From IMG/VR virus record IMGVR_UViG_2778261087_000007: DNA of 36,849 nt; one strand, 5' to 3'. This document shows positions 4,787 to 36,849 of this stretch, piece by piece; within the stretch, counting starts at the first letter, position 1, and every line of letters starts with the position of its first letter. Origin of the DNA: a virus. Its lineage: Duplodnaviria > Heunggongvirae > Uroviricota > Caudoviricetes. The notes below the pieces were generated by a model. That model was not told where the DNA came from and did no database searches. It was given only the letters and a program-made list of their open reading frames with translations. The position numbers and the translations under genes were made by a program.

Positions 4787-5487
4787 TTCAGGGCACCTCT
4801 CAGCGCGGATAAATCCTCACCTGCAAAGAGCATAATAGTGGTCAGCACCCGGTCAGGGTGAGGAATGTTTTTTTTCATCATGATTGCGGCCTGCCTGGTA
4901 TCACCGGAAAAACAGAAACTCCATACCTGGCATGCCCTGTTTTGCGATTCCTGCTTTTCTCCGGTTAATCTGTCCATCAGGTTCTGGCGATCTTTTCTGA
5001 ACTGTGCCAGCGCCTGATCCAGCCCGGAAAAGGACAGCGGAGGAGGGGAAACGGCTGTGCTGATCAATTCAGTCTGTGCCAGACTCCTGGCTGTGCTGAG
5101 TGACAGGGTGGTGCTTTCCGGAAGTGTTGCCGCTACTTTTGCCGGGATCTGCATTTTGCTGACTGCCAGCGATAACTGGCTGGCGATCAGCCTGTTCATT
5201 CGCTTGATTTCCGGCAAAGGGAATACGTCGGCAAAACGTTTTGTCAGTGCAAGAAATTCTGAAGCTGAAGTGGCACTGAGCATCATTAGTACCATGTCGC
5301 AATCCCGGCTGCCCTCCAGTCTGTGCAGAATGGCATCAATGGCATTTTCCGGGCTGAGGTAAGCCCCTGAACGGGTGACGTTTCCCACACCTTCCGACCA
5401 TGGATGGAGACAAAGTTGTGAGCAGTTGATATTCATTGCAGCAGGCTTAAGAAGACTGCTTTTCCATTCCGCTGGCTGCATATTCAT
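4783..5487 (-). CDS. hypothetical protein, unknown function
   Basis: ORF 4783-5541 begins with TTG in the track; first in-frame ATGs at 5487, 5481 and 5436; no recognisable motif. Confidence 0.4.
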   Translation of the reverse strand: MNMQPAEWKSSLLKPAAMNINCSQLCLHPWSEGVGNVTRSGAYLSPENAIDAILHRLEGSRDCDMVLMMLSATSASEFLALTKRFADVFPLPEIKRMNRLIASQLSLAVSKMQIPAKVAATLPESTTLSLSTARSLAQTELISTAVSPPPLSFSGLDQALAQFRKDRQNLMDRLTGEKQESQNRACQVWSFCFSGDTRQAAIMMKKNIPHPDRVLTTIMLFAGEDLSALRGALK

Positions 5488-5643
5488 ACCATTTATTTCT
5501 GATGTGTTGTTGTTTTTTGATGTAATACACAAATTTAACAAAGTGTATGCAAGGCTGTTTAATATGCCATTCTGTAGTTATATGATCCCGGACGACCATA
5601 AGGGATACTGCACTGCAGTGTCTTCTCCCTTGGAAAACCTTTT

Positions 5644-5676
5644 CTGCCATACATTTGTATGGCAGGCTTTTTTTTT
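5644..5676. terminator. strong hairpin plus T9 run (plus-strand orientation) in minus-strand operon
   Basis: 9-bp stem ctgccatac/gtatggcag, 4-nt loop, then gc and 9 T; overlaps the stop of the DUF1353-like gene. Confidence 0.4.
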
Positions 5677-6059
5677 CAGCAACAGGTTCCCTGCTGCGTG
5701 TCGCTGTATTTCCCTTTCCCGAACAACCTTACCGCAAGATACATCAACCGTCTGCGCCAGCGTGGAACTCCCAGCACCGTCATCGCATCCAGAAATATCC
5801 TGTCCGCTTCCGCCTTCGTGCGCAGGGCATTGTCATACAGCCAGTCATGAATAATCGCGGCTTTCGCATAACGACCATGCGGCGGGAACAGTGCCCACAG
5901 AAGCCGGGGCACACTGGCAAGGTCCGTCACATATCCCTCCGGAACATAAATCACATCATCCGGGTTATCCGTCAGCCAGAATTCAAACGGCTCAACCAGC
6001 CGCCAGCGGTAATCATCCAGCATCTCCAGAATGGCCGGTGTGGTGAACTTACTCATCAT
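5676..6059 (-). CDS. DUF1353-like protein
   Basis: Motif YVTDLASVPRLLWALFPP...AAIIHDWLY recalls the DUF1353 family often found next to phage tail-fibre genes; start at MMSKF, overlaps the tfa stop. Confidence 0.5.
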   Translation of the reverse strand: MMSKFTTPAILEMLDDYRWRLVEPFEFWLTDNPDDVIYVPEGYVTDLASVPRLLWALFPPHGRYAKAAIIHDWLYDNALRTKAEADRIFLDAMTVLGVPRWRRRLMYLAVRLFGKGKYSDTQQGTCC

Positions 6060-6660
6060 CACCCTCTGGCCAGCCAACAGGATACGCACGAATATCCGGC
6101 AGTGCGGTCAGCCCTGCCACTTCTTCTTTCATCCGGCGCTGGCGTTCGTGGATTTTAAACCCCTGCATCACCATTGCCGCATTCATCGCAGTATCCAGTT
6201 GTATCAGCTCTTCCGGCGTCAGAGTGACATCCTGATTATCCGCATCCGTCCAGAAAAAATGCTCCGGCAACAGCCCGTTTCCTGCCACCGCAACAACAGG
6301 TGTCAGTCTGGACTGTGACGCCTTTCCGGCATCCCAGCGATGACCACTGAATTCAAAAACAAAACTGCTGTTCTCCTGGCTGTCACGCCAGCGACTGATT
6401 TCACCGTATTTCTGATTTCTGGCCTTTTCCAGTATCTCCTCTGTCACCACAAACGGCGTGACTCCACCCCAGGCCCCTGATATCAGTCCTGACCAGAGCC
6501 TTAACCCGAATTCTGTCGGGTCTGAAGCTCTGGCAGTATAAGGTACATATACCCGATGACTGTCATCAGAACGGTCTGCCATGAACACCTCACAGGTAAT
6601 GCTGCCATCTTCATTAAAACGGGCATTGCGGACGTCCGCTTCTGAATTCCTGGTATCCAT
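6049..6660 (-). CDS. tail fibre assembly chaperone (second copy)
   Basis: 203 aa immediately after tail fibre 2; C-terminal region typical of Tfa chaperones. Confidence 0.7.
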   Translation of the reverse strand: MDTRNSEADVRNARFNEDGSITCEVFMADRSDDSHRVYVPYTARASDPTEFGLRLWSGLISGAWGGVTPFVVTEEILEKARNQKYGEISRWRDSQENSSFVFEFSGHRWDAGKASQSRLTPVVAVAGNGLLPEHFFWTDADNQDVTLTPEELIQLDTAMNAAMVMQGFKIHERQRRMKEEVAGLTALPDIRAYPVGWPEGDDE

Positions 6661-21150: not shown

Positions 21151-22023
21151 TTAAATCAGTTTAAACGTGTTGGTTTCCGGCGCTCTTCCAGGAATGGTGG
21201 TGGCTTCACGGCTGAGTTCGCTGAATGCGGTTTCAAGATTTTCCACCTTCTGTGCAATATTCACGATGGTGGAAAACATTTTCTGCAGTTGCTCTTCTGA
21301 CTGGGTGAAGGTGGCTTCAGTGCCTTCAGTCTTCTGCGTGTTATCCTGTGCATTCGTTGTCTTTTCTGCGTCAGGTTCTGATTTCTCCTGCGCTGACAGT
21401 TGACTGAACTGATTTTCCAGTCTGTCCAGGCGATCTCCGGTCTGCTGAATGGCGCTCATCATCTGGTTAAATTGTTCCTGGTTCATTGGTGCCTCTTCCT
21501 GTTTGTGAGGTGACGAAGTGAAAAAGCGGGAGAAAAAGCCCCGTTTGGCCTGCTCATCATCAGGCTGCAGCGTGAAATTCAGCGTTTCTGCATTCCCCAT
21601 GCGGACAGCGTTACCCTGTGAAAAGTGCAGGCGGGTGGTGTTAATGCTGGCCGGTGTGTCGGTGACAGCGATACCACTGAGCCAGAATTTGCCGGTGCCC
21701 ATGTAGTCATCGCTGATTTCCACGGATGTGAACAGCTTCTGTCCGGCTTTGTTGGCTTCCAGGAGGAAACGGTTCGGCACAATGCGGGCTTTGAGCTGGA
21801 TCCTGTCGCCGAATTTTTCGGTTTTCAGTTCCTCAATTGTGCCGTAGTTGTTGGTGAAGGCACGCCAGCCAGGGTCAGCATGATATGGCCAGAGCATGGC
21901 AGTGTATTCTTCCGCGTTATAGACCTCTGCGGCATCTGTCAGCCATTTTTCTTCAATATCGCGACCGTCAACAGCCTTTCCCGAGGTGGCGACCACAACC
22001 CAGTCTGTTTTCTGTTTCGTCAT
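21151..22023 (-). CDS. capsid scaffolding protein, gpO-like
   Basis: Start placed at MTKQKTDW (22023) by comparison with gpO N-termini; acidic Q/E-rich C-terminal half; track ORF extends to 22089. Confidence 0.75.
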   Translation of the reverse strand: MTKQKTDWVVVATSGKAVDGRDIEEKWLTDAAEVYNAEEYTAMLWPYHADPGWRAFTNNYGTIEELKTEKFGDRIQLKARIVPNRFLLEANKAGQKLFTSVEISDDYMGTGKFWLSGIAVTDTPASINTTRLHFSQGNAVRMGNAETLNFTLQPDDEQAKRGFFSRFFTSSPHKQEEAPMNQEQFNQMMSAIQQTGDRLDRLENQFSQLSAQEKSEPDAEKTTNAQDNTQKTEGTEATFTQSEEQLQKMFSTIVNIAQKVENLETAFSELSREATTIPGRAPETNTFKLI

Positions 22024-22208
22024 AGGAAATTTATTCACTGATAAAACCGTACTGCGGGTATTAGATGAATAATCCTGTGCCGGCGTCATCCTGTTTATTT
22101 CTGCTGTATTCGGATAAACCGGTATATCCGAAAATAACTGAATTCTGCTGTTCGTCTTCAGAAAGACCTTTTTCGAAAATGGTCGAAGTTTATTTATACG
22201 GAGGAGTT
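22024..22208. promoter_or_regulatory. divergent late-promoter region between scaffold and terminase operons
   Basis: 185-bp AT-rich spacer between divergent O and P starts; no TGT-N12-ACA Ogr box found by eye. Confidence 0.35.
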
Positions 22209-23987
22209 ATGGCTTATTCTGATGAAGTGATAGCTGCTGCCCGTGCGCTGTATCTGAAACGGTATACGCCGAAAGAAATACAAAAAAAGCTGGGGCTTAA
22301 CAGTCCGCGTATTGTTTATTACTGGGCAACAAAATATGAGTGGTATGCGCAGCTCAGTACCGAAGGTGTGGAGGAGGTGATCGCCCGTCGTGTGATGACG
22401 CTGACAGAGCGTGAACATAAAAGTCAGGAAGAGCGGGATGAACTTGATCGTCTTATCGGGCACCATGTGAAACTGATGTCTGCCAGACACAGACATACAG
22501 AACGAATGGCAGAAATTGAACATATGTCTGTTGAGATGGCAGACAGTTCGCCGGTATCCCGTGGTAACAGTGAAAGCGGTAAAAAAGAACGCCGACGTAA
22601 GGCTAATGATATTTCCGGACTGACGGCAGAGAGTTTTGAACCGTTTACTAAAAAACTGTTCGCTTATCAGTTACACCTTCGGAAAAACAAAATTCGCCGT
22701 GTACGTAATTTGCTTAAATCCCGTCAGATTGGTGCAACCTTTTATTTTGCCTTTGAAGCTTTCGAAGATGCTGTATTAACTGGCGACACTCAGATATTTC
22801 TGTCCGCTTCAAAACGTCAGGCGGAAGTCTTTCGTACCTATATTGTTAAAATTGCACAGCAAGAATTTGGGATCGCAATTAAGGGTAATCCTGTCAGGTT
22901 AAGTAATATGGCTGAGCTGTATTTTCTGGCAACGAACAGTAACACCGCACAGTCAAACAGTGGTCACGTGTACATTGATGAATATCTGTGGATCCCCGGC
23001 TTTGAACGTCTTAATACGGTTGCTTCCGGTATGGCCACACACTCGCGGTGGCGTCTGACCTATTTTTCTACACCGTCCGGTAAAACACACCAGGGATACG
23101 CGTTCTGGTCCGGTGATGAATGGCGACGCGGAGATCCGAAGCGTAAACAGGTTGAATTCCCGTCCTTTGATGAGCTGCGTGACGGTGGGCGCGAATGTCC
23201 TGACGGGCAGTGGCGTTACGTGGTGACGCTGGAAGATGCCATTGCCGGTGGATTTAACCTTGCCGATATCAACGAACTGCGCGAACGATACAGTGAGACC
23301 GCGTTCAGGATGTTGTTTATGTGCCAGTTCGTGGACGACAAGGAGAGCATTTTCCGTTTTGAAGATCTGGAGCGTTGTGGTGTTGACCCCCGAATATGGG
23401 AGGACTTCAATCCTGATGAACCGGCGCCGTTCGGTAATCGTGAGGTCTGGGGCGGTTTTGACCCGGCGAGAGGGGGGGATAATGCCACGTTTGTGGTGGT
23501 GGCACCGCCACTGGTCGAAGGGGAACGCTTTCGTGTACTGGAAAAACATCACTGGCGCAGCATGTCATTTCAGTATATGGCTGAACGTATCCGCGCCATT
23601 AAATCCCGCTATAACATGACCTTTATCGGGATAGATGTCACCGGGCTCGGGTATGGCGTTTATGAACTTGTTCAGGGATTTGCCCGCCGTGAAACCGTGG
23701 CCATTCATTACAGCGTTGAGAGTAAAAATCGTCTGGTGATGAAAATGCTGGATGTGGTGGATGCTCGGCGCATCGAATGGGATGAAGAGGCAAAGGATAT
23801 TCCGGCTTCATTCATGGCCATTCGCCAGGAAACCACAGGCAGTGGCAACAAAGTTACCTTTACGGCAGAACGTAGTGAGGAAACCGGCCATGCGGATGTG
23901 TTTTTCGCTATTGCCCATGCGCTCAGTAATGAGCCGCTGAATTACAAAAATAAACGCAAATCAACGTGGGTTTTTGCTGATGACTAA
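22209..23987 (+). CDS. terminase ATPase (large) subunit, gpP-like
   Basis: 592 aa from ATG at 22209 preceded by GGAGGAG; P2 gpP is about 590 aa; divergent from the scaffold gene as in P2. Confidence 0.85.
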   Translation: MAYSDEVIAAARALYLKRYTPKEIQKKLGLNSPRIVYYWATKYEWYAQLSTEGVEEVIARRVMTLTEREHKSQEERDELDRLIGHHVKLMSARHRHTERMAEIEHMSVEMADSSPVSRGNSESGKKERRRKANDISGLTAESFEPFTKKLFAYQLHLRKNKIRRVRNLLKSRQIGATFYFAFEAFEDAVLTGDTQIFLSASKRQAEVFRTYIVKIAQQEFGIAIKGNPVRLSNMAELYFLATNSNTAQSNSGHVYIDEYLWIPGFERLNTVASGMATHSRWRLTYFSTPSGKTHQGYAFWSGDEWRRGDPKRKQVEFPSFDELRDGGRECPDGQWRYVVTLEDAIAGGFNLADINELRERYSETAFRMLFMCQFVDDKESIFRFEDLERCGVDPRIWEDFNPDEPAPFGNREVWGGFDPARGGDNATFVVVAPPLVEGERFRVLEKHHWRSMSFQYMAERIRAIKSRYNMTFIGIDVTGLGYGVYELVQGFARRETVAIHYSVESKNRLVMKMLDVVDARRIEWDEEAKDIPASFMAIRQETTGSGNKVTFTAERSEETGHADVFFAIAHALSNEPLNYKNKRKSTWVFADD

Positions 23988-25029
23988 AAAGAATAAACAG
24001 TGCCGGCAGCAAGGTGATGTCGCAGTGAATACGCAAGGACAGTCAGCAGGCAAAAAAATGAGCCTGATTGAATTTGGTGATCCCGAGCCAGTTGCTGCCT
24101 GGGGAAGTTATAACGGCACATTCTGGGACGGTTATAACGGCTATTACCAGCCGCCTGTTGAACGGATGGACCTTGCCGTACTGGCCAATATTGCCCCCTA
24201 TCATGGGGCAGTGTTACGTGCGCGGGTTAATATGATTATGCAGGGATTTAAAAGTGGTGGCGGCATGAGTCACGCGGCAATGACAGCTGCTGTCACCAAC
24301 CTGCTGATATTCGGTGATGTCGGACTGCTGAAAGTGCGCAATGGTTTCGGGAAAGTGGTCAGGCTTGTCACGCTACCCTCCCTGTATCTGCGCCGCAACA
24401 GTAACGGTGGAACGGTGATCGTGCAGATGGCTATGGATGACACGGTATATGGACCTGATGAAGTGGTCTTTGTTGCCATCTACGATCCGCAACAACAGGT
24501 ATATGGGGTTCCGGACTATATCCATGGTATGGAGTCTGCCATGCTTAATGTGGATGCCACCCGGTTCCGCCGTAAATATTTTAAAAACGGCGCACACCTC
24601 GGTTACATTTTATATACCACGGATCCTGATATGTCGCCTGAGCTCGAGGATGAGTTTCGTAAAAAAATTGAACAGTCAAAAGGCGCAGGAAATTTTAAAT
24701 CCATGTTTATTAATATACCCGGAGGGAATGCTGAGGGGGTGAAGGTAATTCCTGTTGGTGATACCGGTACCAAAGATGAATTTCTGAATATCAAGAATAT
24801 CAGTGCGCAGGACCAACTTGTTGCGCACCGTTTCCCGCCAGGGCTGGCTGGCATTATTCCAGCCAATACTGCCGGACTTGGTGATCCGCTCAAATCACGC
24901 GAAGCGTACTACCGTGATGAAGTGATCCCCATGCGACGGCTGATAATGGAAAGTATCAACAGTGACCGTGATATTCTCCGCCTCGGGCGCGTGGTGTTTG
25001 ACCTTAATTTTGAAGAGCAGGGCAGATAA
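23980..25029 (+). CDS. portal protein, gpQ-like
   Basis: about 349 aa (P2 gpQ 344 aa); first ATG 23980 overlaps the end of the terminase gene; alternative ATG at 24058. Confidence 0.8.
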   Translation: MTKKNKQCRQQGDVAVNTQGQSAGKKMSLIEFGDPEPVAAWGSYNGTFWDGYNGYYQPPVERMDLAVLANIAPYHGAVLRARVNMIMQGFKSGGGMSHAAMTAAVTNLLIFGDVGLLKVRNGFGKVVRLVTLPSLYLRRNSNGGTVIVQMAMDDTVYGPDEVVFVAIYDPQQQVYGVPDYIHGMESAMLNVDATRFRRKYFKNGAHLGYILYTTDPDMSPELEDEFRKKIEQSKGAGNFKSMFINIPGGNAEGVKVIPVGDTGTKDEFLNIKNISAQDQLVAHRFPPGLAGIIPANTAGLGDPLKSREAYYRDEVIPMRRLIMESINSDRDILRLGRVVFDLNFEEQGR

Positions 25030-25094
25030 TGTGCTGTACAGGACGAGAGCGGTTAAAATCACCACGACCGAAGCAATCTGTCGGGAGGTGGAAC

Positions 25095-25352
25095 ATGCGC
25101 AGACAAAAGGCACGGTGTCATTGCTGTGGTTCGGTGGCCATTATTGAAAAAACTGTATGGAAAACGGACCATTTTGCCGATGTATATTACCGCTGTACCC
25201 GGCTTGACTGTGGGCATACCTGGGTGATGAATCTGACCTATTCTCATACGCTTGTCCCAAGCGGTCTGGATAACGGTGTACTGAAATTACTGATAGAACG
25301 CATGCGCCCGGAAGAAAAACAGATGGCGCTGGAATTGCTTCAGGCTGGATGA
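25095..25352 (+). CDS. Ogr/Delta-type zinc-finger late transcription activator
   Basis: 85 aa with exact C-X2-C-X22-C-X4-C spacing (RCHCCGS...YYRCTRLDCGHTW); ATG preceded by GGGAGGTG. Confidence 0.75.
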   Translation: MRRQKARCHCCGSVAIIEKTVWKTDHFADVYYRCTRLDCGHTWVMNLTYSHTLVPSGLDNGVLKLLIERMRPEEKQMALELLQAG

Positions 25353-25373
25353 GTGTGGTGATGAGGGTAACTG

Positions 25374-26000
25374 ATGTTGGACTCTTCTCTTTTGAATTTA
25401 CCATGGGAGGCACTTGTCACGCTTTCCTGTGGATATATTGGCTATTTCATATCAACTGTTGGGATCAACGATAGTCATAAACCTACAGAGATAACGTTTT
25501 CCACCCTGATTTTTGGCATGTTTTCCGCTATGGTTTACCATGCATTTGTATGGGCGGGTGTTGATGACTGGACGGCTACACTTCCAACGGTTTTATATGC
25601 TGTGGCGAGTGGCGCATACTGGCGTAAATATGCACGAGCATGGATGTACCGCTTCCTCAGAAAACATGATATCTCATGGTCAGACAGTAGTAGTTCTGCG
25701 TGGCAGTCGATGTTTGAACAGACTGATTTTCCTGTAACAGAGGTTTTAGTATTTCTGAAAGATGGCTCGGTATTACGTTCTCTTTTATCGGCTGATTTTG
25801 AACAGCTACCAAATGGTCCACTGACGCTGGGTAACAATGGTGACATTACTCTTTATGTTACACATTACAGAGATAATAACAGTCGTGAATGGATGAAATA
25901 TGATAACGTAATGGATAAGCAGTCTGGCAATCTGGCGACATGGATCCCTCGTGACCAGATTGTCAGAATGGATATCCGGAGGATAAGAACCGTACGCTGA
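25374..26000 (+). CDS. membrane protein of unknown function (cargo candidate)
   Basis: 208 aa; three N-terminal hydrophobic helices then basic stretch RKYARAWMYRFLRK and a 120-aa soluble domain; ATG preceded by GAGGG. Confidence 0.6.
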   Translation: MLDSSLLNLPWEALVTLSCGYIGYFISTVGINDSHKPTEITFSTLIFGMFSAMVYHAFVWAGVDDWTATLPTVLYAVASGAYWRKYARAWMYRFLRKHDISWSDSSSSAWQSMFEQTDFPVTEVLVFLKDGSVLRSLLSADFEQLPNGPLTLGNNGDITLYVTHYRDNNSREWMKYDNVMDKQSGNLATWIPRDQIVRMDIRRIRTVR

Positions 26001-26082
26001 GAGCCTGTTTAGGATTCTGTGTAAATGCCTTTTATTGTGCATGTTCTGCTCATCCATTTTCTGACGCGCTTTGCTTGTCCAA

Positions 26083-26143
26083 CCGGGAACAGGCGCACAA
26101 AGAATTTGCGCACCTGTTCCCGGTTCTCTTTAATTATTTTTTG
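26083..26143. terminator. long imperfect palindrome with T-rich tail between convergent genes
   Basis: 11-bp perfect stem ccgggaacagg/cctgttcccgg plus inner pairing, followed by ttctctttaattattttttg. Confidence 0.55.
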
Positions 26144-26625
26144 TTATGCCATCTGACCGCACCACCTGCCAGGATAACGGCTTTTTCAATATCCCGTTCA
26201 TAGCGTAAAGGCTGAAACACACCGTCGATGAAGTATTCACTGATTTCTGGCAGGAAAATCGTAAATCCTCCTGCTGCGTTTTTGTGCGGTAAGACTGCAT
26301 TCTCCAGTGCATCCTGGGCTTTTTTGAATTTCAGTGTGTAGTCAGTCGCGATTTCTTCCAGCTCAGCGATGCGCAGCTTCGCTTTTCCCAGTTCTTTTTC
26401 TGCTTTATCTGCACGTTCAGCCTCGGACCCGGCGAGCTGAAAGTAATGCCACTTTTCTCCTTCGTACAGGTTAACGTAATCCCTGAGCCTGTCCCGTTCG
26501 TCCAGGAGAGCCAGTACCACCGATGGTGTGGCCTTAATACGAAATGCCAGAAGTTTCTTTGGTGTTGCCACTTTTTCTGTTGCCGTTGCTGTGTCACGCA
26601 ACGCCTGATAATCGACTTCGTTCAT
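26134..26625 (-). CDS. hypothetical protein (coupled to upstream gene)
   Basis: 163 aa from ATG at 26625, ATGA overlap with the preceding ORF stop; central charged helical segment. Confidence 0.5.
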   Translation of the reverse strand: MNEVDYQALRDTATATEKVATPKKLLAFRIKATPSVVLALLDERDRLRDYVNLYEGEKWHYFQLAGSEAERADKAEKELGKAKLRIAELEEIATDYTLKFKKAQDALENAVLPHKNAAGGFTIFLPEISEYFIDGVFQPLRYERDIEKAVILAGGAVRWHNKK

Positions 26626-27053
26626 TGTGATGTTCTCCGGTGTTGTGTCGGCCTGGCGAATGAATTGCGTTGTGGTGAAAAGACCATTTCCGCCAGGGCG
26701 GCCTTGCGATTGACGACATTCAACATTCTGGCCAGCGCTGCGTTGTGTTTGTGTGCCTGTTCTTCGTGGTACTTCTGCATGATTTTCCCTGCAGGTGTGC
26801 ACGGCTCCGACTCCTCCGGCGAACGGCGGGTACGAACTGAGACAATCCAGCTCTTATGTTCATTTCCCGGCCGTCTGTTGAGTATATCTGTAATGGTGGT
26901 TTTCGTGGTGCGGTCAGGATTGACCACTGTGATTTCCAGTTCATCGCCGGGTTGTGGTCTCGTGGCAATGTTGTTCAGAGTCAGTAATGGCGTGCGCTGG
27001 CGCATCATGTTGTCAAAGCGCTGGCGCTGCATGGTGCAGTAAAAACGGGTCAT
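26622..27053 (-). CDS. hypothetical protein downstream of replication gene
   Basis: 143 aa; ATGA overlap with the replication gene stop. Confidence 0.5.
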   Translation of the reverse strand: MTRFYCTMQRQRFDNMMRQRTPLLTLNNIATRPQPGDELEITVVNPDRTTKTTITDILNRRPGNEHKSWIVSVRTRRSPEESEPCTPAGKIMQKYHEEQAHKHNAALARMLNVVNRKAALAEMVFSPQRNSFARPTQHRRTSQ

Positions 27054-29578
27054 TGTGGCCCCTCCGTTTTCTGTGCAGGGTTGAGCTCAATGCGGCGGGT
27101 GTTGTCGTTCCAGTACGCGGTGCGCCCGTCATCCAGGAGAACACGGGCCCCGTTACGCACGGAAATAATGGCTGCGTCAGGCAGTTGTACGCCCAGTGCA
27201 TCGAGTTCGCAGGTGATTTGTGCGGTGATGTGTGGCTCTGCTGTCAGTGCGACATCCACGCGAACGCCGTCAGTGGGCGCACTGATGCCGCCGTTTTTCA
27301 CGGTTTCTGTGTCAGGTGGCGGGTTTTTCAACTGCCGGGTGAGTTGTTTTCTCTGTACCGGTGTCAGCGACCTCAGCCATTCGGTTAAATCACCTTCCGG
27401 CAGGGTAAGTCGTTGCTCCCTGCGTCTGTCCTGTTGCCCTTCTGGCGTGGCATTACTGGTTAAATTCTGGTCATGGGGACAGTTATTGCCACGAGTCCAA
27501 GGGGCGACAAAGTCGCCCTCAACGTCAAAATCAGTTTCGCTGGCGCTGTCTTCACCTTCCGGCTTACGTCTGACCAGTTTCCAGGTGTCCGGATGGGTGC
27601 ATATGGTGTACTGCTCCCCGAGTGACGGTGCACGGACACCGTAAATACGTTGCGGAAATTCGCCGTAGTCGTTGGCCTCTTCGGCGGTTTCGTATGCGGT
27701 GCGGACCAGGTACGTGTTGCGGGGAATGAGTACACCACCCTGCCTGGTGATGTAGGTGGCAAAACATCCCACATCAGCGGCGGCCAGTATGGCGTCAATG
27801 TCTTCATTATCGAGGCGCTGTGGTGCCTTCGGGTTACGGGCTATCTGCCCGGCAAGACGGCGGAGTTCGCGCCATACCTGGCGTGGCGGGATACCGAAGA
27901 ACTGGAACTGGCGGATGCGGTGAAGGGTCGCCCAGCCGATGGCGTTCTCCACGGTTTCTGCCATTGTTTTGCCTGATTCCCTGTCTGCGTATGGTTTGCC
28001 GGTTTTCGGGTCATTCCCCATAAATACGCTGGCGTCCAGGTTCTTACCGATATAGGTCGCGATATAGCTTGCCGGGGTGCCTTTTGCTGGGTCGATTTTT
28101 TCGCATTTAAAACGCGGGGAGATATCATCACCCAGCTCTGCACGGTCCTCCCTGATGGCGGCGTTGCGCATGATTTCAGTGATACGGGCTTCGTTTTCCG
28201 GACTGGTGAATACCAGCATGTGCCAGTGCGGTGTGCCGTCGTGGTGAGGCTCCACGGTGCGTACACCGTACCAGCCCAGCCCGGCTTTGCTGATGGCCTT
28301 GCGGACGGCAGCGAAAAATCTGTAAACCAGGTAATCACTGGCATCGCGTACCGTTGCCCCGCAGAATTTCGGGTTCAGGCTGCCGTCATCGTTCACGCTG
28401 TGAAAACGGGAAGGGGCGGTGACGGTGACGAAAAACGCCACATCGCCGCGCGCTTCGGCGACCTGCTCCATTCCCCGGACGCAGGCCATCATCTCGTTGC
28501 GACGGTTGCGCGGATTGGCGAGTCCGGCCCAGTAGATATCCTCAAGGCTGAACCGCTCTCCCTCTTCGTTCTCGACATCCCAGGCTTTCAGAAAATCGCG
28601 GGTGCGCTGGCGTTTTTCGCGCCAGTCCAGTAACGCTTCATGGCTGATGTATACCGACTCCTTACGTGACACCAGACCTGCGGCGCGTAACAGCTCTTCC
28701 CGCCAGATGTCGCGAAGGTGTCTTAACTGACCGTTCCACCAGTTCGCGCAGGAAAGACGCATGACTGCACCCGGCACCTGTTCCAGGTCGGGGGCGGTGC
28801 GGCGGTCGGGTCTGATTTCCAGCGACGGCCAGCAGGGCGGGGTGACACCCAGTTTTAACGCCATATGTGCCAGCGGCTGGTAGGTCAGCAGCCAGGTGTA
28901 CAGGTCATCATCCCCCTTTCCGGTCCTTTTGATGGCCTCATCACATGCGCGCTCCAGTGCGGCGGAAAATGCGGTGGCGGTCAGGGTGGCAAGGCGCTGA
29001 ATGTCGTCGCGCTCCAGTTGCGGGAGTATCAGGAGTTCATCCAGTCGTTCGCGGGCAGCGGTGGCCTTAAATGCTGTAGTGGCAAACCGTTCATTCACCT
29101 GTCTGATGCGTTTCAGACGGGCGCGCAGCCCGTGGCGAACGAAGTTATCCGCTGCGTATGCGCTGTTGTTCTTAAGTTCTTTCTGACGGGCATCGTCCTG
29201 TTTGCGTCTGAAGAACGCCAGCCTGCGAATCAACGGTCCGGCGAGAAAGGCCGGAAGGGCGCGCAGCTCTGCCATGGCCTCGGATACCAGCGTGGGTGGG
29301 TTATCGCGTCTGTACCTGGCCAGCTTTTCCAGCCGTATCTGCCGCTCTTCGTCGTGATGAAGGTGCGAATTAATCTGCCTGCCTTTTTCTGTGCTTGTCA
29401 GGAAGACGACGGTTTCTTCATCCAGCCGGGCATTAATCCGGATGTCTTCGTTGATGTAGCTCTGAATTGCCCTGCGTAATGCCGTCGGCTTCTGTGGTAA
29501 CGCTCTGCCGAAGGTTTCCGGGTCGATAACGGGCAGTGGAGCGTTCCATGACCAGGCCCATTCGCGGTTGGTGTTCAT
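27050..29578 (-). CDS. rolling-circle replication initiator, gpA-like
   Basis: about 842 aa; HUH-type motif PHWHMLVF and paired tyrosines YIATYIGKN; ATG at 29578 preceded by GGGGAG (track start is GTG at 29587). Confidence 0.85.
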   Translation of the reverse strand: MNTNREWAWSWNAPLPVIDPETFGRALPQKPTALRRAIQSYINEDIRINARLDEETVVFLTSTEKGRQINSHLHHDEERQIRLEKLARYRRDNPPTLVSEAMAELRALPAFLAGPLIRRLAFFRRKQDDARQKELKNNSAYAADNFVRHGLRARLKRIRQVNERFATTAFKATAARERLDELLILPQLERDDIQRLATLTATAFSAALERACDEAIKRTGKGDDDLYTWLLTYQPLAHMALKLGVTPPCWPSLEIRPDRRTAPDLEQVPGAVMRLSCANWWNGQLRHLRDIWREELLRAAGLVSRKESVYISHEALLDWREKRQRTRDFLKAWDVENEEGERFSLEDIYWAGLANPRNRRNEMMACVRGMEQVAEARGDVAFFVTVTAPSRFHSVNDDGSLNPKFCGATVRDASDYLVYRFFAAVRKAISKAGLGWYGVRTVEPHHDGTPHWHMLVFTSPENEARITEIMRNAAIREDRAELGDDISPRFKCEKIDPAKGTPASYIATYIGKNLDASVFMGNDPKTGKPYADRESGKTMAETVENAIGWATLHRIRQFQFFGIPPRQVWRELRRLAGQIARNPKAPQRLDNEDIDAILAAADVGCFATYITRQGGVLIPRNTYLVRTAYETAEEANDYGEFPQRIYGVRAPSLGEQYTICTHPDTWKLVRRKPEGEDSASETDFDVEGDFVAPWTRGNNCPHDQNLTSNATPEGQQDRRREQRLTLPEGDLTEWLRSLTPVQRKQLTRQLKNPPPDTETVKNGGISAPTDGVRVDVALTAEPHITAQITCELDALGVQLPDAAIISVRNGARVLLDDGRTAYWNDNTRRIELNPAQKTEGPQ

Positions 29579-29583
29579 GGCGC

Positions 29584-29997
29584 TCACTCCCCGGCAGTTG
29601 CCCGTTGAAATGCGGCACGGTACAGCACAAGAAGGCGCCGGTATTCGTCAATAAAGCCTTCTGCCGTTTTAATCCCTTTCACTGCCACGCTGTGGGTTGT
29701 CATGTCCAGTACGAGCGCCATTTCTGACGATGACCAACTGATTACGCTGTGGTCGTGCCCGTTGATGTGGAACAGGCCCAGATTCAGGCTGTGATTCAGG
29801 TCTCTGACGTCAACACGGTAACGGTCATCAACGGTGAAGGAGAAATCACCTGATGTGGTGATACTGCTGGCTGCCTGTTTACAGGCGCGGCGGTAATAGT
29901 CATGCCAGTCATTGAGGCGGGAGGCGAGGTGTGGATCCACCGACCACATCCAGTTAAAAAAATCCTGAATATCTGAAAGTTCCTTAACGTTCTTCAT
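29584..29997 (-). CDS. hypothetical protein upstream of replication gene
   Basis: 137-aa ORF whose stop overlaps the replication gene start region. Confidence 0.5.
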   Translation of the reverse strand: MKNVKELSDIQDFFNWMWSVDPHLASRLNDWHDYYRRACKQAASSITTSGDFSFTVDDRYRVDVRDLNHSLNLGLFHINGHDHSVISWSSSEMALVLDMTTHSVAVKGIKTAEGFIDEYRRLLVLYRAAFQRATAGE

Positions 29998-30065: not shown

Positions 30066-30293
30066 TTAGTGGTGGTGTTGCTGGTTGATAAGGTTCTGCA
30101 GTTCCGCGAGATCATCCGCCAGGTAGCTGAAAACAGCGGCACAGTAACGGTTTGACAGGGCGTGAGTGCGCTCATGCAGCATATTGATGTGCATGATTTG
30201 CGCGACGCGTGATGCGCGGAAAAGTCTGCGGTTGATTTCGGTGCGGATGTGAAGGCGCTCAGCGCGGGCGCGCTGTTGTTTGCGGTTTGCCAT
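30066..30293 (-). CDS. small basic hypothetical protein
   Basis: 75 aa, Arg/Lys-rich N-terminus, ATG with GAGG about 9 nt upstream. Confidence 0.45.
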   Translation of the reverse strand: MANRKQQRARAERLHIRTEINRRLFRASRVAQIMHINMLHERTHALSNRYCAAVFSYLADDLAELQNLINQQHHH

Positions 30294-30470
30294 GGTGTGG
30301 CCTCGTATGTAGTAAGTTTTAAAAACTCACCATCCAGAGCTGCGAAACTGTGGGTGGCGAGACGTACGAGGTTCGCAGTACCGGCTACATACGATCCCGG
30401 CCCGACCGAAGTCGGCCCCGTACGCCCCGCCATAATTCTGATGCGAAAAAGACGTGGCAATGCAGTACGC

Positions 30471-30493
30471 ACAAAAAAACCGCTGGCGCGGTT
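30471..30493 (-). terminator. intrinsic terminator downstream of dam
   Basis: On the minus strand: stem accgc/gcggt with 4-nt loop followed by 7 T. Confidence 0.6.
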
Positions 30494-30581
30494 GTGCGCG
30501 TATGTAGTCAGCAGGCTGCGAAACCCGGCACCCGTTTTATAAGGTGCAGCGGGAATGTAACCCGACTGATTACGGCATGGC

Positions 30582-35331: not shown

Positions 35332-35445
35332 TTGTTATCCTCTTGCGTTGGTGCGCTTATCGCGCCTTGTTATGGTTTGTTTTGGTTTGTTTTGGTTTGT
35401 AAAGATAATCGTACGGTTATCTTTGTGCGAGAGGTTAATACTCAA
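35332..35445. promoter_or_regulatory. immunity switch region (divergent promoters and operators)
   Basis: Three tandem tggtttgttt units (35373-35402) and near-perfect palindrome GATAATCGTACGGTTATC (35404-35421) between the divergent cox-like and C genes. Confidence 0.55.
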
Positions 35446-35787
35446 ATGGTTATCTTGTCAATAGACTATGCGGAAAAGTTGCGTCAAATACGTAAGGCAG
35501 AGGGGCTAACACAAAAGCAGTTTGCTGATATCACAGGACTATCTTTAGCAGCCATAAGGAACTATGAATCAGGGCAAAAAAGCGCCAGAGCAAAAATCGT
35601 TGAGACTGTTTTGCAGGTAGATCGATTCGAAAAGTATATGTTGTGGTTATTAAAGGATAAAACGCTACCTGCCGCCGGGCAAATAGCCCCGGCTCTCTCT
35701 CTTGATGGCTCTTCTCAGTCGGAGGGCGATCAGGCTTCAACCGACGCTATCCAAAAATCACCCCGATCAGGCCGCAATGCTGGCTGA
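35446..35787 (+). CDS. immunity repressor C (P2 C-like)
   Basis: 113 aa; LTQKQFADITGLSLAAIRNYESGQ HTH and FEKYMLWLLKDKTLPAAGQIAPAL closely parallel P2 C (..YYESG.., ..FTKYTLWFMTNQ..GQIAPAL). Confidence 0.8.
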   Translation: MVILSIDYAEKLRQIRKAEGLTQKQFADITGLSLAAIRNYESGQKSARAKIVETVLQVDRFEKYMLWLLKDKTLPAAGQIAPALSLDGSSQSEGDQASTDAIQKSPRSGRNAG

Positions 35788-35856
35788 CGCTACACATTGA
35801 GCGAATTGCATTTCGCAAGGAGTGCCTGATTAATTTATCCGTTGGAGGGGCTAATC

Positions 35857-36849
35857 ATGTCGATTAAGCAACTCAAAGACGGACGTTATAAGGTTGATGT
35901 AAGACCACAGGGTGCTGAGGGTAAGCGGATTCGAAAAACCTTCACCCTGAAATCGAAGGCCCAGGAGTTTGAGAGGTATGTTTTACAGAATTTTCATGAC
36001 AAGCCGTGGCAGGCAAAACCAGCTGATCAGCGGCGGTTATCTGAACTGATAGAGGACTGGTGGATGCTTGACGGACGTAATCAGCCTTACGGAGATTCCT
36101 ACAGGGTCAGGCTGGAAAAGGTGATACGTGAAATGGGAGATCCACGCGCCAGCCAGATGACGCGAAAATTTATGCTTGAATATCGGTCAGAGAAATTACA
36201 GGCCGGATTAATGCCGTCCAGCATTAATCGTGACTTGTGCGTTTTGTCAACGATGTTCTCAGTATTGATTGAGACGGAGGTTTTTCACAACGCGAACCCT
36301 GTACGCGGTATACGCAAACTGAAAGTTCAGAACACAGAAATGGCCTTTCTTTCTGATGATGAGATTGATCGGCTTCTTGAGCGACTCGAAGGTGATGCGC
36401 GTCGTGTCGCCATTCTGTGTCTTTCTACGGGAGCTCGGTGGGGTGAGGCGGCGGAATTACGCGGGGAGCATATCGTCGGTAATCGCGTGACGTTCTTCAA
36501 CACCAAGAACGGGAAGTCTCGTTCGGTTCCGGTGTCTGATGCTGTGCTCTCGCTGATTAAAACCCGCCGAACCGGGCCGCTGTACGATGTCGATTATCTC
36601 CGGTTTCGCGAGATCCTCCAGGAGGTGAAGCCTGATTTGCCAAAAGGACAGGCTACTCATGTGATGCGTCATACGTTCGCCACGCATTTCATGATGAACG
36701 GGGGAAACATCGTTACCCTGCAACGGATTCTGGGACATGCCACTATTCAGCAAACGATGACTTATGCGCATTTTTCACCGGACTTTTTACAGGACGCAAT
36801 CAACTTTAATCCGCTGGCTGAAAGTGTCCATAAACTGTCCATCGATTAG
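35857..36849 (+). CDS. int: tyrosine integrase (P2 family)
   Basis: 330 aa from ATG at 35857 preceded by GGAGGGG; arm-binding N-terminus MSIKQLKDGRYKVDVRPQG..GKRIRKTF and C-terminal HVMRHTFATH...LGHATIQQTMTYAH catalytic region; stop is the last codon of the window. Confidence 0.9.
   Translation: MSIKQLKDGRYKVDVRPQGAEGKRIRKTFTLKSKAQEFERYVLQNFHDKPWQAKPADQRRLSELIEDWWMLDGRNQPYGDSYRVRLEKVIREMGDPRASQMTRKFMLEYRSEKLQAGLMPSSINRDLCVLSTMFSVLIETEVFHNANPVRGIRKLKVQNTEMAFLSDDEIDRLLERLEGDARRVAILCLSTGARWGEAAELRGEHIVGNRVTFFNTKNGKSRSVPVSDAVLSLIKTRRTGPLYDVDYLRFREILQEVKPDLPKGQATHVMRHTFATHFMMNGGNIVTLQRILGHATIQQTMTYAHFSPDFLQDAINFNPLAESVHKLSID

Follow-up and report, generated by a model that had tools for sequence, protein, structure and literature searches.

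What does a membrane protein do whose gene sits directly behind the late-transcription activator of a P2-like prophage, in an interval known for its defence genes? The question is raised by a stretch of 36,849 nucleotides (nt) from a virus of the Caudoviricetes (IMG/VR record IMGVR_UViG_2778261087_000007), referred to over its full length as the window, which is a P2-like (HP1/ESSI2-type) prophage next to serS. In it, a gene for a protein of 208 amino acids (aa) at positions 25374–26000 (plus strand) lies between the gpQ-like portal gene (23974–25029) and the replication endonuclease gene gpA (27050–29587). As described by Rousset et al. 2022 (PMC9122126), the gpQ–gpA interval of P2 is a defence hotspot which holds old and tin; the hotspot is also covered in PMC13586616. 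The initial annotation of the window had taken the interval for a P2 accessory locus, which agrees with the published hotspot and with the absence of the inserted cassette from a related prophage. Our analysis points to the 208-aa protein as a reasonable candidate for an inner-membrane exclusion or abortive-infection factor, a function to which we give a little less than an even chance.

The gene belongs to a discrete insertion. Positions 24047–25350 of the window align with positions 4967–6269 of the prophage of Escherichia coli STEC316 (L001), and positions 26061–26130 align with its positions 6272–6341. In STEC316 the stop codon of the activator gene ogr is followed directly by a 70 base pair (bp) element which is 91% identical to window 26061–26130, whereas in the window 710 bp (25353–26060, plus strand) separate the ogr stop from this conserved terminator element. 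Since the two aligned blocks adjoin each other in STEC316, the 710 bp represent an insertion exactly after the ogr stop. The phage ESSI2_ev040 is also devoid of the cassette. In the E. coli prophages L004–L007 about 875 bp are found at the insertion site, and these prophages carry the cassette with varying neighbours. As judged from this presence and absence among close relatives, the 208-aa gene is accessory. Furthermore, the composition of the cassette deviates, its guanine-plus-cytosine (GC) content being 42–45% as compared to 48–58% in the surroundings.

The protein has a large family. A total of 32 full-length close homologues (48–100% identical, about 205–218 aa) were found in Escherichia, Salmonella, Klebsiella, Citrobacter, Serratia, Arsenophonus and Symbiopectobacterium, and a profile search of 1.8 billion representatives unveiled 482 clusters (50% identity), with a full-length match for nearly all of the best 150. 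In alignment A1, which comprises 30 homologues including the window protein, 39 residues are invariant, and the window protein carries all of them. With 32 full-length homologues, 482 clusters and many invariant residues, the 208-aa open reading frame (ORF) is therefore no chance ORF. An identical protein was moreover found in independent samples. The wide alignment retains mainly Gly, Tyr, Trp and Pro together with one near-invariant Asp, and no broadly conserved catalytic set was observed.

Searches of family databases placed the protein next to uncharacterised groups. It matches phrog_12870 (function unknown) with an E-value of 2.4e-83, no match was obtained in NCBIfam, a Pfam PPR_1 match was dismissed as spurious, and a profile search of the PDB with the family gave chance hits alone (E ≥ 0.4). 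DUF6338 (PF19865) was matched by 17 of the 30 close homologues below the cutoff of 26.5 bits (best E 8.5e-06), and distant family representatives score 16–21 bits against it. A precomputed PF19865 hit exists for two relatives, and the source annotation calls P0030 a 'DUF6338 family protein'; the window protein itself gave no match to the DUF6338 profile. Because the matches stay under the cutoff, the profile scores identify the family as a distantly related sister group of DUF6338 and not as a member of it. Literature searches on the function of DUF6338 yielded nothing relevant.

The fold of the protein was predicted with AlphaFold from a 94-sequence alignment (predicted local distance difference test, pLDDT, 94.2; predicted template modelling score, pTM, 0.76). 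The model contains helices at residues 11–28, 37–60 and 65–97, a short helix at 109–115 and a beta domain which extends to residue 203. Combining hydropathy, charge counts and the model helices, the membrane-helix part (residues 11–31, 41–60 and 65–83) is encoded by 25404–25622 and the Sm-like domain (residues 109–203; one helix, then bent beta-strands) by 25698–25982, both on the plus strand. According to Kyte-Doolittle hydropathy the first two transmembrane helices (TM1 and TM2) are clear, with peaks of 1.57 and 1.66; TM3 is weakly hydrophobic and stays below 1.0 in a 19-residue window, so that the claim of three transmembrane helices rests on the model and the charge distribution. No Lys or Arg is found at the N-terminus, two acidic residues lie in the 61–66 loop and six Lys or Arg follow right after helix 3. 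On the basis of this charge distribution (positive-inside rule) the N-terminus is predicted to be outside and the C-terminus inside, which would render the beta domain cytoplasmic. Residues 1–31, i.e. the N-terminus and TM1, are the most conserved segment (0.90 in A1, 0.52 in the more diverse alignment A2), and conservation across the family is lowest in the C-terminal tail. Conservation that peaks in the periplasm-facing N-terminus and TM1 is unusual for a mere anchor and argues that both do more than hold the protein in the membrane.

In the model, the three N-terminal helices are followed by a basic amphipathic helix and a Sm-like beta-barrel, in which an N-terminal helix precedes a strongly bent five-stranded antiparallel sheet, as is expected for Sm/LSm folds. 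At the sequence level, hhalign of the family profile against E. coli Hfq gave a probability of 0.2% and no Sm1/Sm2 homology was found. Sm folds typically form rings (hexameric or heptameric), and on this ground the inner-membrane protein, presumably non-enzymatic, is probably oligomeric. The mechanosensitive channel MscS likewise consists of three helices and a subsequent cytoplasmic Sm-like beta domain; neither MS_channel domains nor a structural match of TM3 plus beta domain could be detected in our family. The topology prediction and structure search which the initial annotation had proposed point to an N-out/C-in protein with three helices and a Sm-like cytoplasmic domain. Its description as a protein with three transmembrane helices and an unrecognised soluble domain stands for the helices, TM1 and TM2 by hydropathy and the third by the model, and has to be amended for the domain, which is recognisable as a Sm-like fold.

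In order to locate the family, genome and viral collections were scanned with A1, as A2 was too diverse for locus scanning, resulting in 44 loci. In 38 of them, from at least 8 genera, the gene closes a Mu-like prophage, at a distance of 90–350 nt downstream of mor; the host flanks of these prophages vary (e.g. cirA, kefF, pdu). One locus (L035) is the window's own element, and the other P2-like copies make up the E. coli and Salmonella P0002 cluster. In Enterobacterales the family consequently has its usual site at the end of a Mu-like prophage, where its gene comes last, behind mor. Of the 15 Mu-like loci inspected for upstream signals, most have a hairpin with a T-run 35–60 nt ahead of the gene. 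Among complete E. coli genomes 132 of 5,426 (about 2.4%) carry a member, which is always annotated as 'hypothetical protein'. A near-identity DNA search of phage records gave nothing, and a protein search revealed a distant relative in one of 50,697 phage records. This lone relative, with 30.7% identity, comes from Synechococcus phage Ssp-JY41 (L013, positions 1–744), where it opens a cyanophage record of 20 kb and is again located at a genome end.

Outside the Enterobacterales the family reaches the Alphaproteobacteria, where one copy is found within an HK97-like head module, behind a gp6-type connector, one adjoins a resolvase and one a DUF4145 protein. Two distantly homologous Rhizobiales copies have defence genes as neighbours. 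In Rhizobium leguminosarum (L015) these are ShosTA (ShosA 1.4e-70), PARIS-like AriA/AriB (AriA 4.9e-41) and Avs2-like and IetA-like genes; in L032 they are DRT RT_UG17 (7e-142) and SLATT (1.3e-66). Owing to these copies at Mu-like ends, in P2-like prophages and in Rhizobiales defence islands, it is evident that the gene moves between unrelated temperate phages and defence islands. In both Rhizobiales loci a gene for an FtsH-like AAA+/peptidase M41 protein (IetA-like in PADLOC) is located upstream of the family gene (L015 631–2628, L032 6371–8533), which could reflect either shared ancestry or a functional link.

The widespread Mu-like lineage (L014 from E. coli NRZ14408, L008–L012, L018 and L024–L064) has a divergent layout and sits at many host sites, the pdu operon among them. 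Its late genes occupy one arm; on the other arm, running toward the prophage end, are the repressor, ner, A, B, gam, gemA and mor. An IS66 element takes the place of the region after mor in many E. coli genomes (L068). An interpretation of the E. coli Mu-type elements as mini-elements without structural genes, which would have excluded a lytic role, was rejected, since the full view unveiled complete prophages with the late genes on the other arm.

Downstream of nearly every enterobacterial copy lies a hydrophilic ORF of 39–53 aa in convergent orientation, which is absent in the window. It was located in L004 (8636–8767), L008 (8643–8795), L012 (8677–8796), L018 (8659–8805), L069 (4208–4369), L070 (5636–5791) and L072 (5642–5803), and its conserved N-terminus reads M-T-A/T-x-N-N/D-K-x-D-x-x-D-Y-S-E-K/R-P. 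A conserved inverted repeat, with one compensatory change between E. coli and Serratia, has the ribosome-binding site and start codon of this small ORF as its 3' arm, and the ORF may be a regulated partner gene.

As to the activator in front of the 208-aa gene, the ORF 25095–25352 (plus strand, 85 aa) contains the motif C-x2-C-x22-C-x4-C (CHCC, 22 residues and CTRLDC, at 25116–25211), the single zinc finger of this kind in the whole window. It matches Pfam PF04606 Ogr_Delta with 45 bits against a cutoff of 26.3 (E 1e-11, all 47 model positions covered) and phrog_603 'transcriptional regulator' with an E-value of 2.4e-28. Motif and profiles together make its assignment to Ogr/Delta solid. Members of this class activate late transcription through the alpha subunit of RNA polymerase. 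The zinc-finger activator which the initial annotation had seen right after the portal gene is thereby identified; its further claim that ogr was relocated holds relative to P2 and does not hold for the lineage. The gene follows the portal gene in L001, L002 and L003–L007 as well, with the adjacency annotated in phage ESSI2_ev040 (Quadragintavirus), the E. coli STEC316 prophage and several E. coli P2-like prophages. Gene order across these genomes indicates that ogr after the portal gene is the normal layout of this phage lineage and no one-off relocation. Ogr_Delta is moreover already listed inside gpA–gpQ loci in a table of Rousset et al. 2022 (PMC9122126). Both the ogr layout and the hotspot are thus known, and it is the cargo gene family that is uncharacterised.

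The gene ogr begins 66 nt past the portal stop, and the spacer of 65 nt (25030–25094, plus strand) holds GTGC (25031–25034), a –10-like TAAAAT (25054–25059) and the ribosome-binding site GGGAGGTGG (25083–25091). GTGC and TAAAAT(C) are invariant across five aligned phages and prophages, distant ESSI2_ev040 included, and we infer that the TAAAAT element is the ogr promoter. A scan for the sigma-70 consensus gave no match in the spacer. The late-promoter element of P2 type, TGT-N12-ACA, was found neither in the divergent O/P region (22090–22208) nor upstream of ogr, its 9 matches in the window comparing with 11 expected. Because the element is absent from the divergent O/P region, this activator probably recognises another DNA target than P2 Ogr does.

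The 208-aa gene is preceded by a GAGGG ribosome-binding site 6 nt upstream and is separated from the ogr stop by a gap of 21 nt; no promoter-like site upstream of it was detected in the consensus scan of the window. Most likely, the gene forms the 3' part of the ogr transcript and can also be reached by read-through from the late P–Q operon. Given the missing promoter and the short gap, the protein is probably made together with Ogr and not constitutively in the lysogen. The unit is closed by a conserved terminator element (26061–26142, plus strand) on which the gene relies and which was already present as the ogr terminator. It consists of a hairpin (26081–26125) with 21-nt arms that are 90% complementary, followed by the T-rich tail TTCTCTTTAATTATTTTTTGTT, and the 91 nt from 26060 to 26150 fold at –34.5 kcal/mol (z = –4.98 versus shuffles), in line with the strong terminator that had been noticed from the sequence initially. 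The terminator element is 91% identical to L001 and 88% identical to L004, whereas the flanking genes reach merely 73–76%. Being more conserved than its flanking genes, the 70-bp hairpin element (26061–26130) may have a role beyond transcription termination.

Between gene and terminator, a solo terminal inverted repeat resembling that of the insertion sequence (IS) IS1414 (IS256 family) occupies 25999–26033; no transposase lies nearby, and the TGA stop of the gene (25998–26000) is at the edge of the repeat. The repeat was aligned to both IS ends. An E. coli genome has as many as 21 matches to it (40–54 nt, 89–95% identical), and every one of them adjoins an IS1414 transposase gene. The solo repeat suggests that the small ORF which relatives have downstream was lost here through an earlier IS insertion and deletion. 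A downstream antisense ORF ('MHNKRH') was considered as a remnant of the small ORF and rejected, as the alignment identifies the sequence as the scar of an IS1414 inverted repeat.

These results bear on the proposed defence function as follows. The function is suggested because the accessory distribution, the deviant composition, the mobility between unrelated temperate phages and the defence-island neighbours match those of phage-borne conflict genes. No significant homology to a structural or lysis protein, which had been named in the initial annotation as speaking against it, was found. According to the proposed mechanism, the gene would share the ogr transcript that starts from the promoter-like TAAAAT and would also be reached by read-through from the P–Q late operon, so that the protein would appear at the start of the lytic programme and at most weakly in the lysogen. 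As an oligomeric, non-enzymatic inner-membrane protein it would then shield the element from rival phages. In the case of superinfection exclusion it would stop incoming genomes at the inner membrane; in the case of abortive infection it would make the membrane permeable once the cytoplasmic domain senses infection.

Several observations weigh against a defence function. PADLOC-DB v2.0.0 contains no match for the window protein at E ≤ 1, family peptide motifs were not found in the supplements of two large defence screens, and literature searches found no paper or experiment on any family member. The defence-island evidence is limited to the two Rhizobiales loci, possibly of shared ancestry, and the weak hydropathy of TM3 counts against the predicted architecture. 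The gene comes after an activator of middle or late transcription in P2-like (Ogr) as well as in Mu-like prophages (Mor), an arrangement to which a role in the lytic cycle would fit too, and the fact that one Mu-like lineage almost always has it at its end could indicate a phage-intrinsic function instead of defence. Constitutive expression in the lysogen, which is typical of old, tin and sie genes, is not indicated, as the 208-aa gene has no separate promoter in the window; the probable expression together with Ogr fits classical prophage exclusion genes less well.

An extension of the defence function to the whole family appears rather unlikely to us at present. The family would then be an unrecognised single-gene anti-phage module, a ring-forming protein of MscS-like build with a Sm-like sensor, which gates a leak or blocks DNA entry and shuttles between Mu-like ends, the P2 hotspot and chromosomal defence islands. 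In most copies it would perhaps be regulated by the convergent small ORF under ribosome-binding-site-sequestering control.

The main rival holds that the protein is a helper of the lytic cycle, a phage-intrinsic membrane protein acting at the middle-to-late transition in lysis timing (holin- or antiholin-like) or in membrane conditioning. It accounts for the position behind Ogr in P2-like prophages, apparently in one transcript, and behind Mor in Mu-like ones, as well as for the retention in many genera of one Mu-like lineage; all in all we consider it unlikely. In its predicted topology (three helices, N-out/C-in) and its basic cytoplasmic segment the protein is similar to class I holins such as lambda S105, and weak matches to LydA-type holins were returned by BFVD. 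These matches are, however, not significant (E 0.04–0.8, TMq ≤ 0.37), and the prophage has a holin and endolysin cassette of its own elsewhere (PF04550 and Peptidase_M15_4 in L003). Moreover, close relatives do without the gene, a hairpin with a T-run stands between mor and the gene in Mu-like prophages, homologues occur outside phages in defence islands, and a relative was present in just one of the 50,697 phage records.

Less likely than a lytic helper are the remaining explanations. The protein might serve lysogenic conversion as a small oligomeric channel or membrane stress protein of MscS-like build that benefits the physiology of the lysogen. Its three helices and cytoplasmic Sm-like barrel parallel MscS, and sites at prophage ends and in the hotspot are typical of conversion genes; nevertheless we hold this to be quite improbable. 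Slightly more doubtful still is a membrane-tethered binder, whose Sm-like domain would bind RNA or a protein partner, e.g. the one encoded by the convergent small ORF, and which would act in anti-defence or regulation. It draws on the Sm-like fold, on the basic helix and basic C-terminal tail with 18 Lys or Arg in residues 84–208, and on the conserved convergent ORF of most relatives with its ribosome-binding site in the inverted repeat, but the family has no sequence similarity to Hfq and the window copy is intact although its small ORF is missing. Finally, a decaying insertion, i.e. a remnant carried by an IS-mediated rearrangement, is very improbable, for although a solo IS1414-type repeat directly adjoins the stop codon and the copy lacks the small partner ORF, the gene is full length with all 39 A1-invariant residues, the identical protein recurs in independent samples, and the C-terminal tail is in any case the least conserved part of the family.

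The surrounding prophage is bounded by the seryl-tRNA synthetase gene serS (1–1293) on the left and by an HTH repressor (helix-turn-helix; 35332–35787) and the integrase (35842–36849) on the right, and head and tail genes of HP1/P2 type lie in between. Scaffold gene gpO (21151–22089, minus strand) is divergent from the large terminase gene (inside the ORF 22065–23987, plus strand), which is followed by the portal gene on the plus strand (PF04860 Phage_portal, E 6.9e-15), the left border of the hotspot and homologous to portal genes in ESSI2-like and Yersinia phages. The early-operon side of the hotspot (26134–27053, minus strand) holds further cargo, namely an Ead/Ea22-like gene (26134–26625, or to 26802; PF13935, E 3e-08) and a phrog_14984 gene (26622–27053; E 5.4e-74), both with a gene call in L003; E. 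coli relatives carry ParM/StbB partition genes and Rrf2 or ClpX-type zinc-finger genes there instead. The right border, gpA, is on the minus strand, with PF05840 Phage_GPA matched on the identical L003 gene. The P2 cos site was looked for in the window and not found.

Two further observations were made in this prophage. Above the gathering score, Rfam unveiled a C4 antisense RNA (30350–30437, minus strand, 79.8 bits) and isrK (30473–30547, minus strand, 62.8 bits) directly upstream of a 75-aa 'derepression' gene (about 30066–30293), which corresponds to an antisense-controlled antirepressor module of P1/P7 style within a P2-like prophage. Furthermore, TTCTGCTGT occurs twice in the divergent O/P promoter region (22099–22107 and 22143–22151) and, with at most one mismatch, 36 times in the window compared to 9.9 expected, mainly on the plus strand, an excess that may be a codon-usage effect or a regulatory motif.

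If the 208-aa protein excludes or aborts phages, a compact single-gene membrane system would be added to the defence catalogue, with an architecture (three helices and a Sm-like barrel) not described for defence and a reach over Enterobacterales and Alphaproteobacteria, and cargo traffic between Mu-like prophage ends and the P2 hotspot would be direct. Should its role be lytic instead, two unrelated types of temperate phage would have a new accessory membrane function linked to their middle-to-late switch.

Compared with known systems, the activator shares the zinc-finger motif and a Pfam match over the cutoff with P2 Ogr and P4 Delta, but is encoded after the portal gene and not between the tail genes and int, and the TGT-N12-ACA element of P2 type is missing from the O/P promoter region. 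The 208-aa protein is similar in length (about 200 aa) to the members of DUF6338, an uncharacterised membrane-protein family. With Sm/LSm proteins it shares the fold of its C-terminal domain while differing by the lack of sequence-level Sm homology, and with MscS the combination of three helices and a cytoplasmic Sm-like barrel. Class I holins (lambda S105, LydA-type) have the predicted topology and the positive cytoplasmic segment after helix 3 in common with it, whereas the 208-aa protein is twice as long, has a folded cytoplasmic domain of 100 aa and is encoded outside the lysis cassette. A moron in the sense of Hendrix is an inserted gene with a promoter and a terminator of its own; our gene resembles one as a discrete low-GC insertion between conserved genes, but in the window has neither, and in Mu-like prophages the family gene is instead preceded by a hairpin and T-run. 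From the known hotspot cargo (old, tin and the systems of Rousset et al. 2022) it differs in that ogr lies inside the slot and the gene is joined to the ogr transcription unit without a promoter of its own, and in being unrelated in sequence to old, to tin and to all PADLOC models; with this cargo it shares the same slot, the variable content among close prophages and the form of a single small gene of foreign composition.

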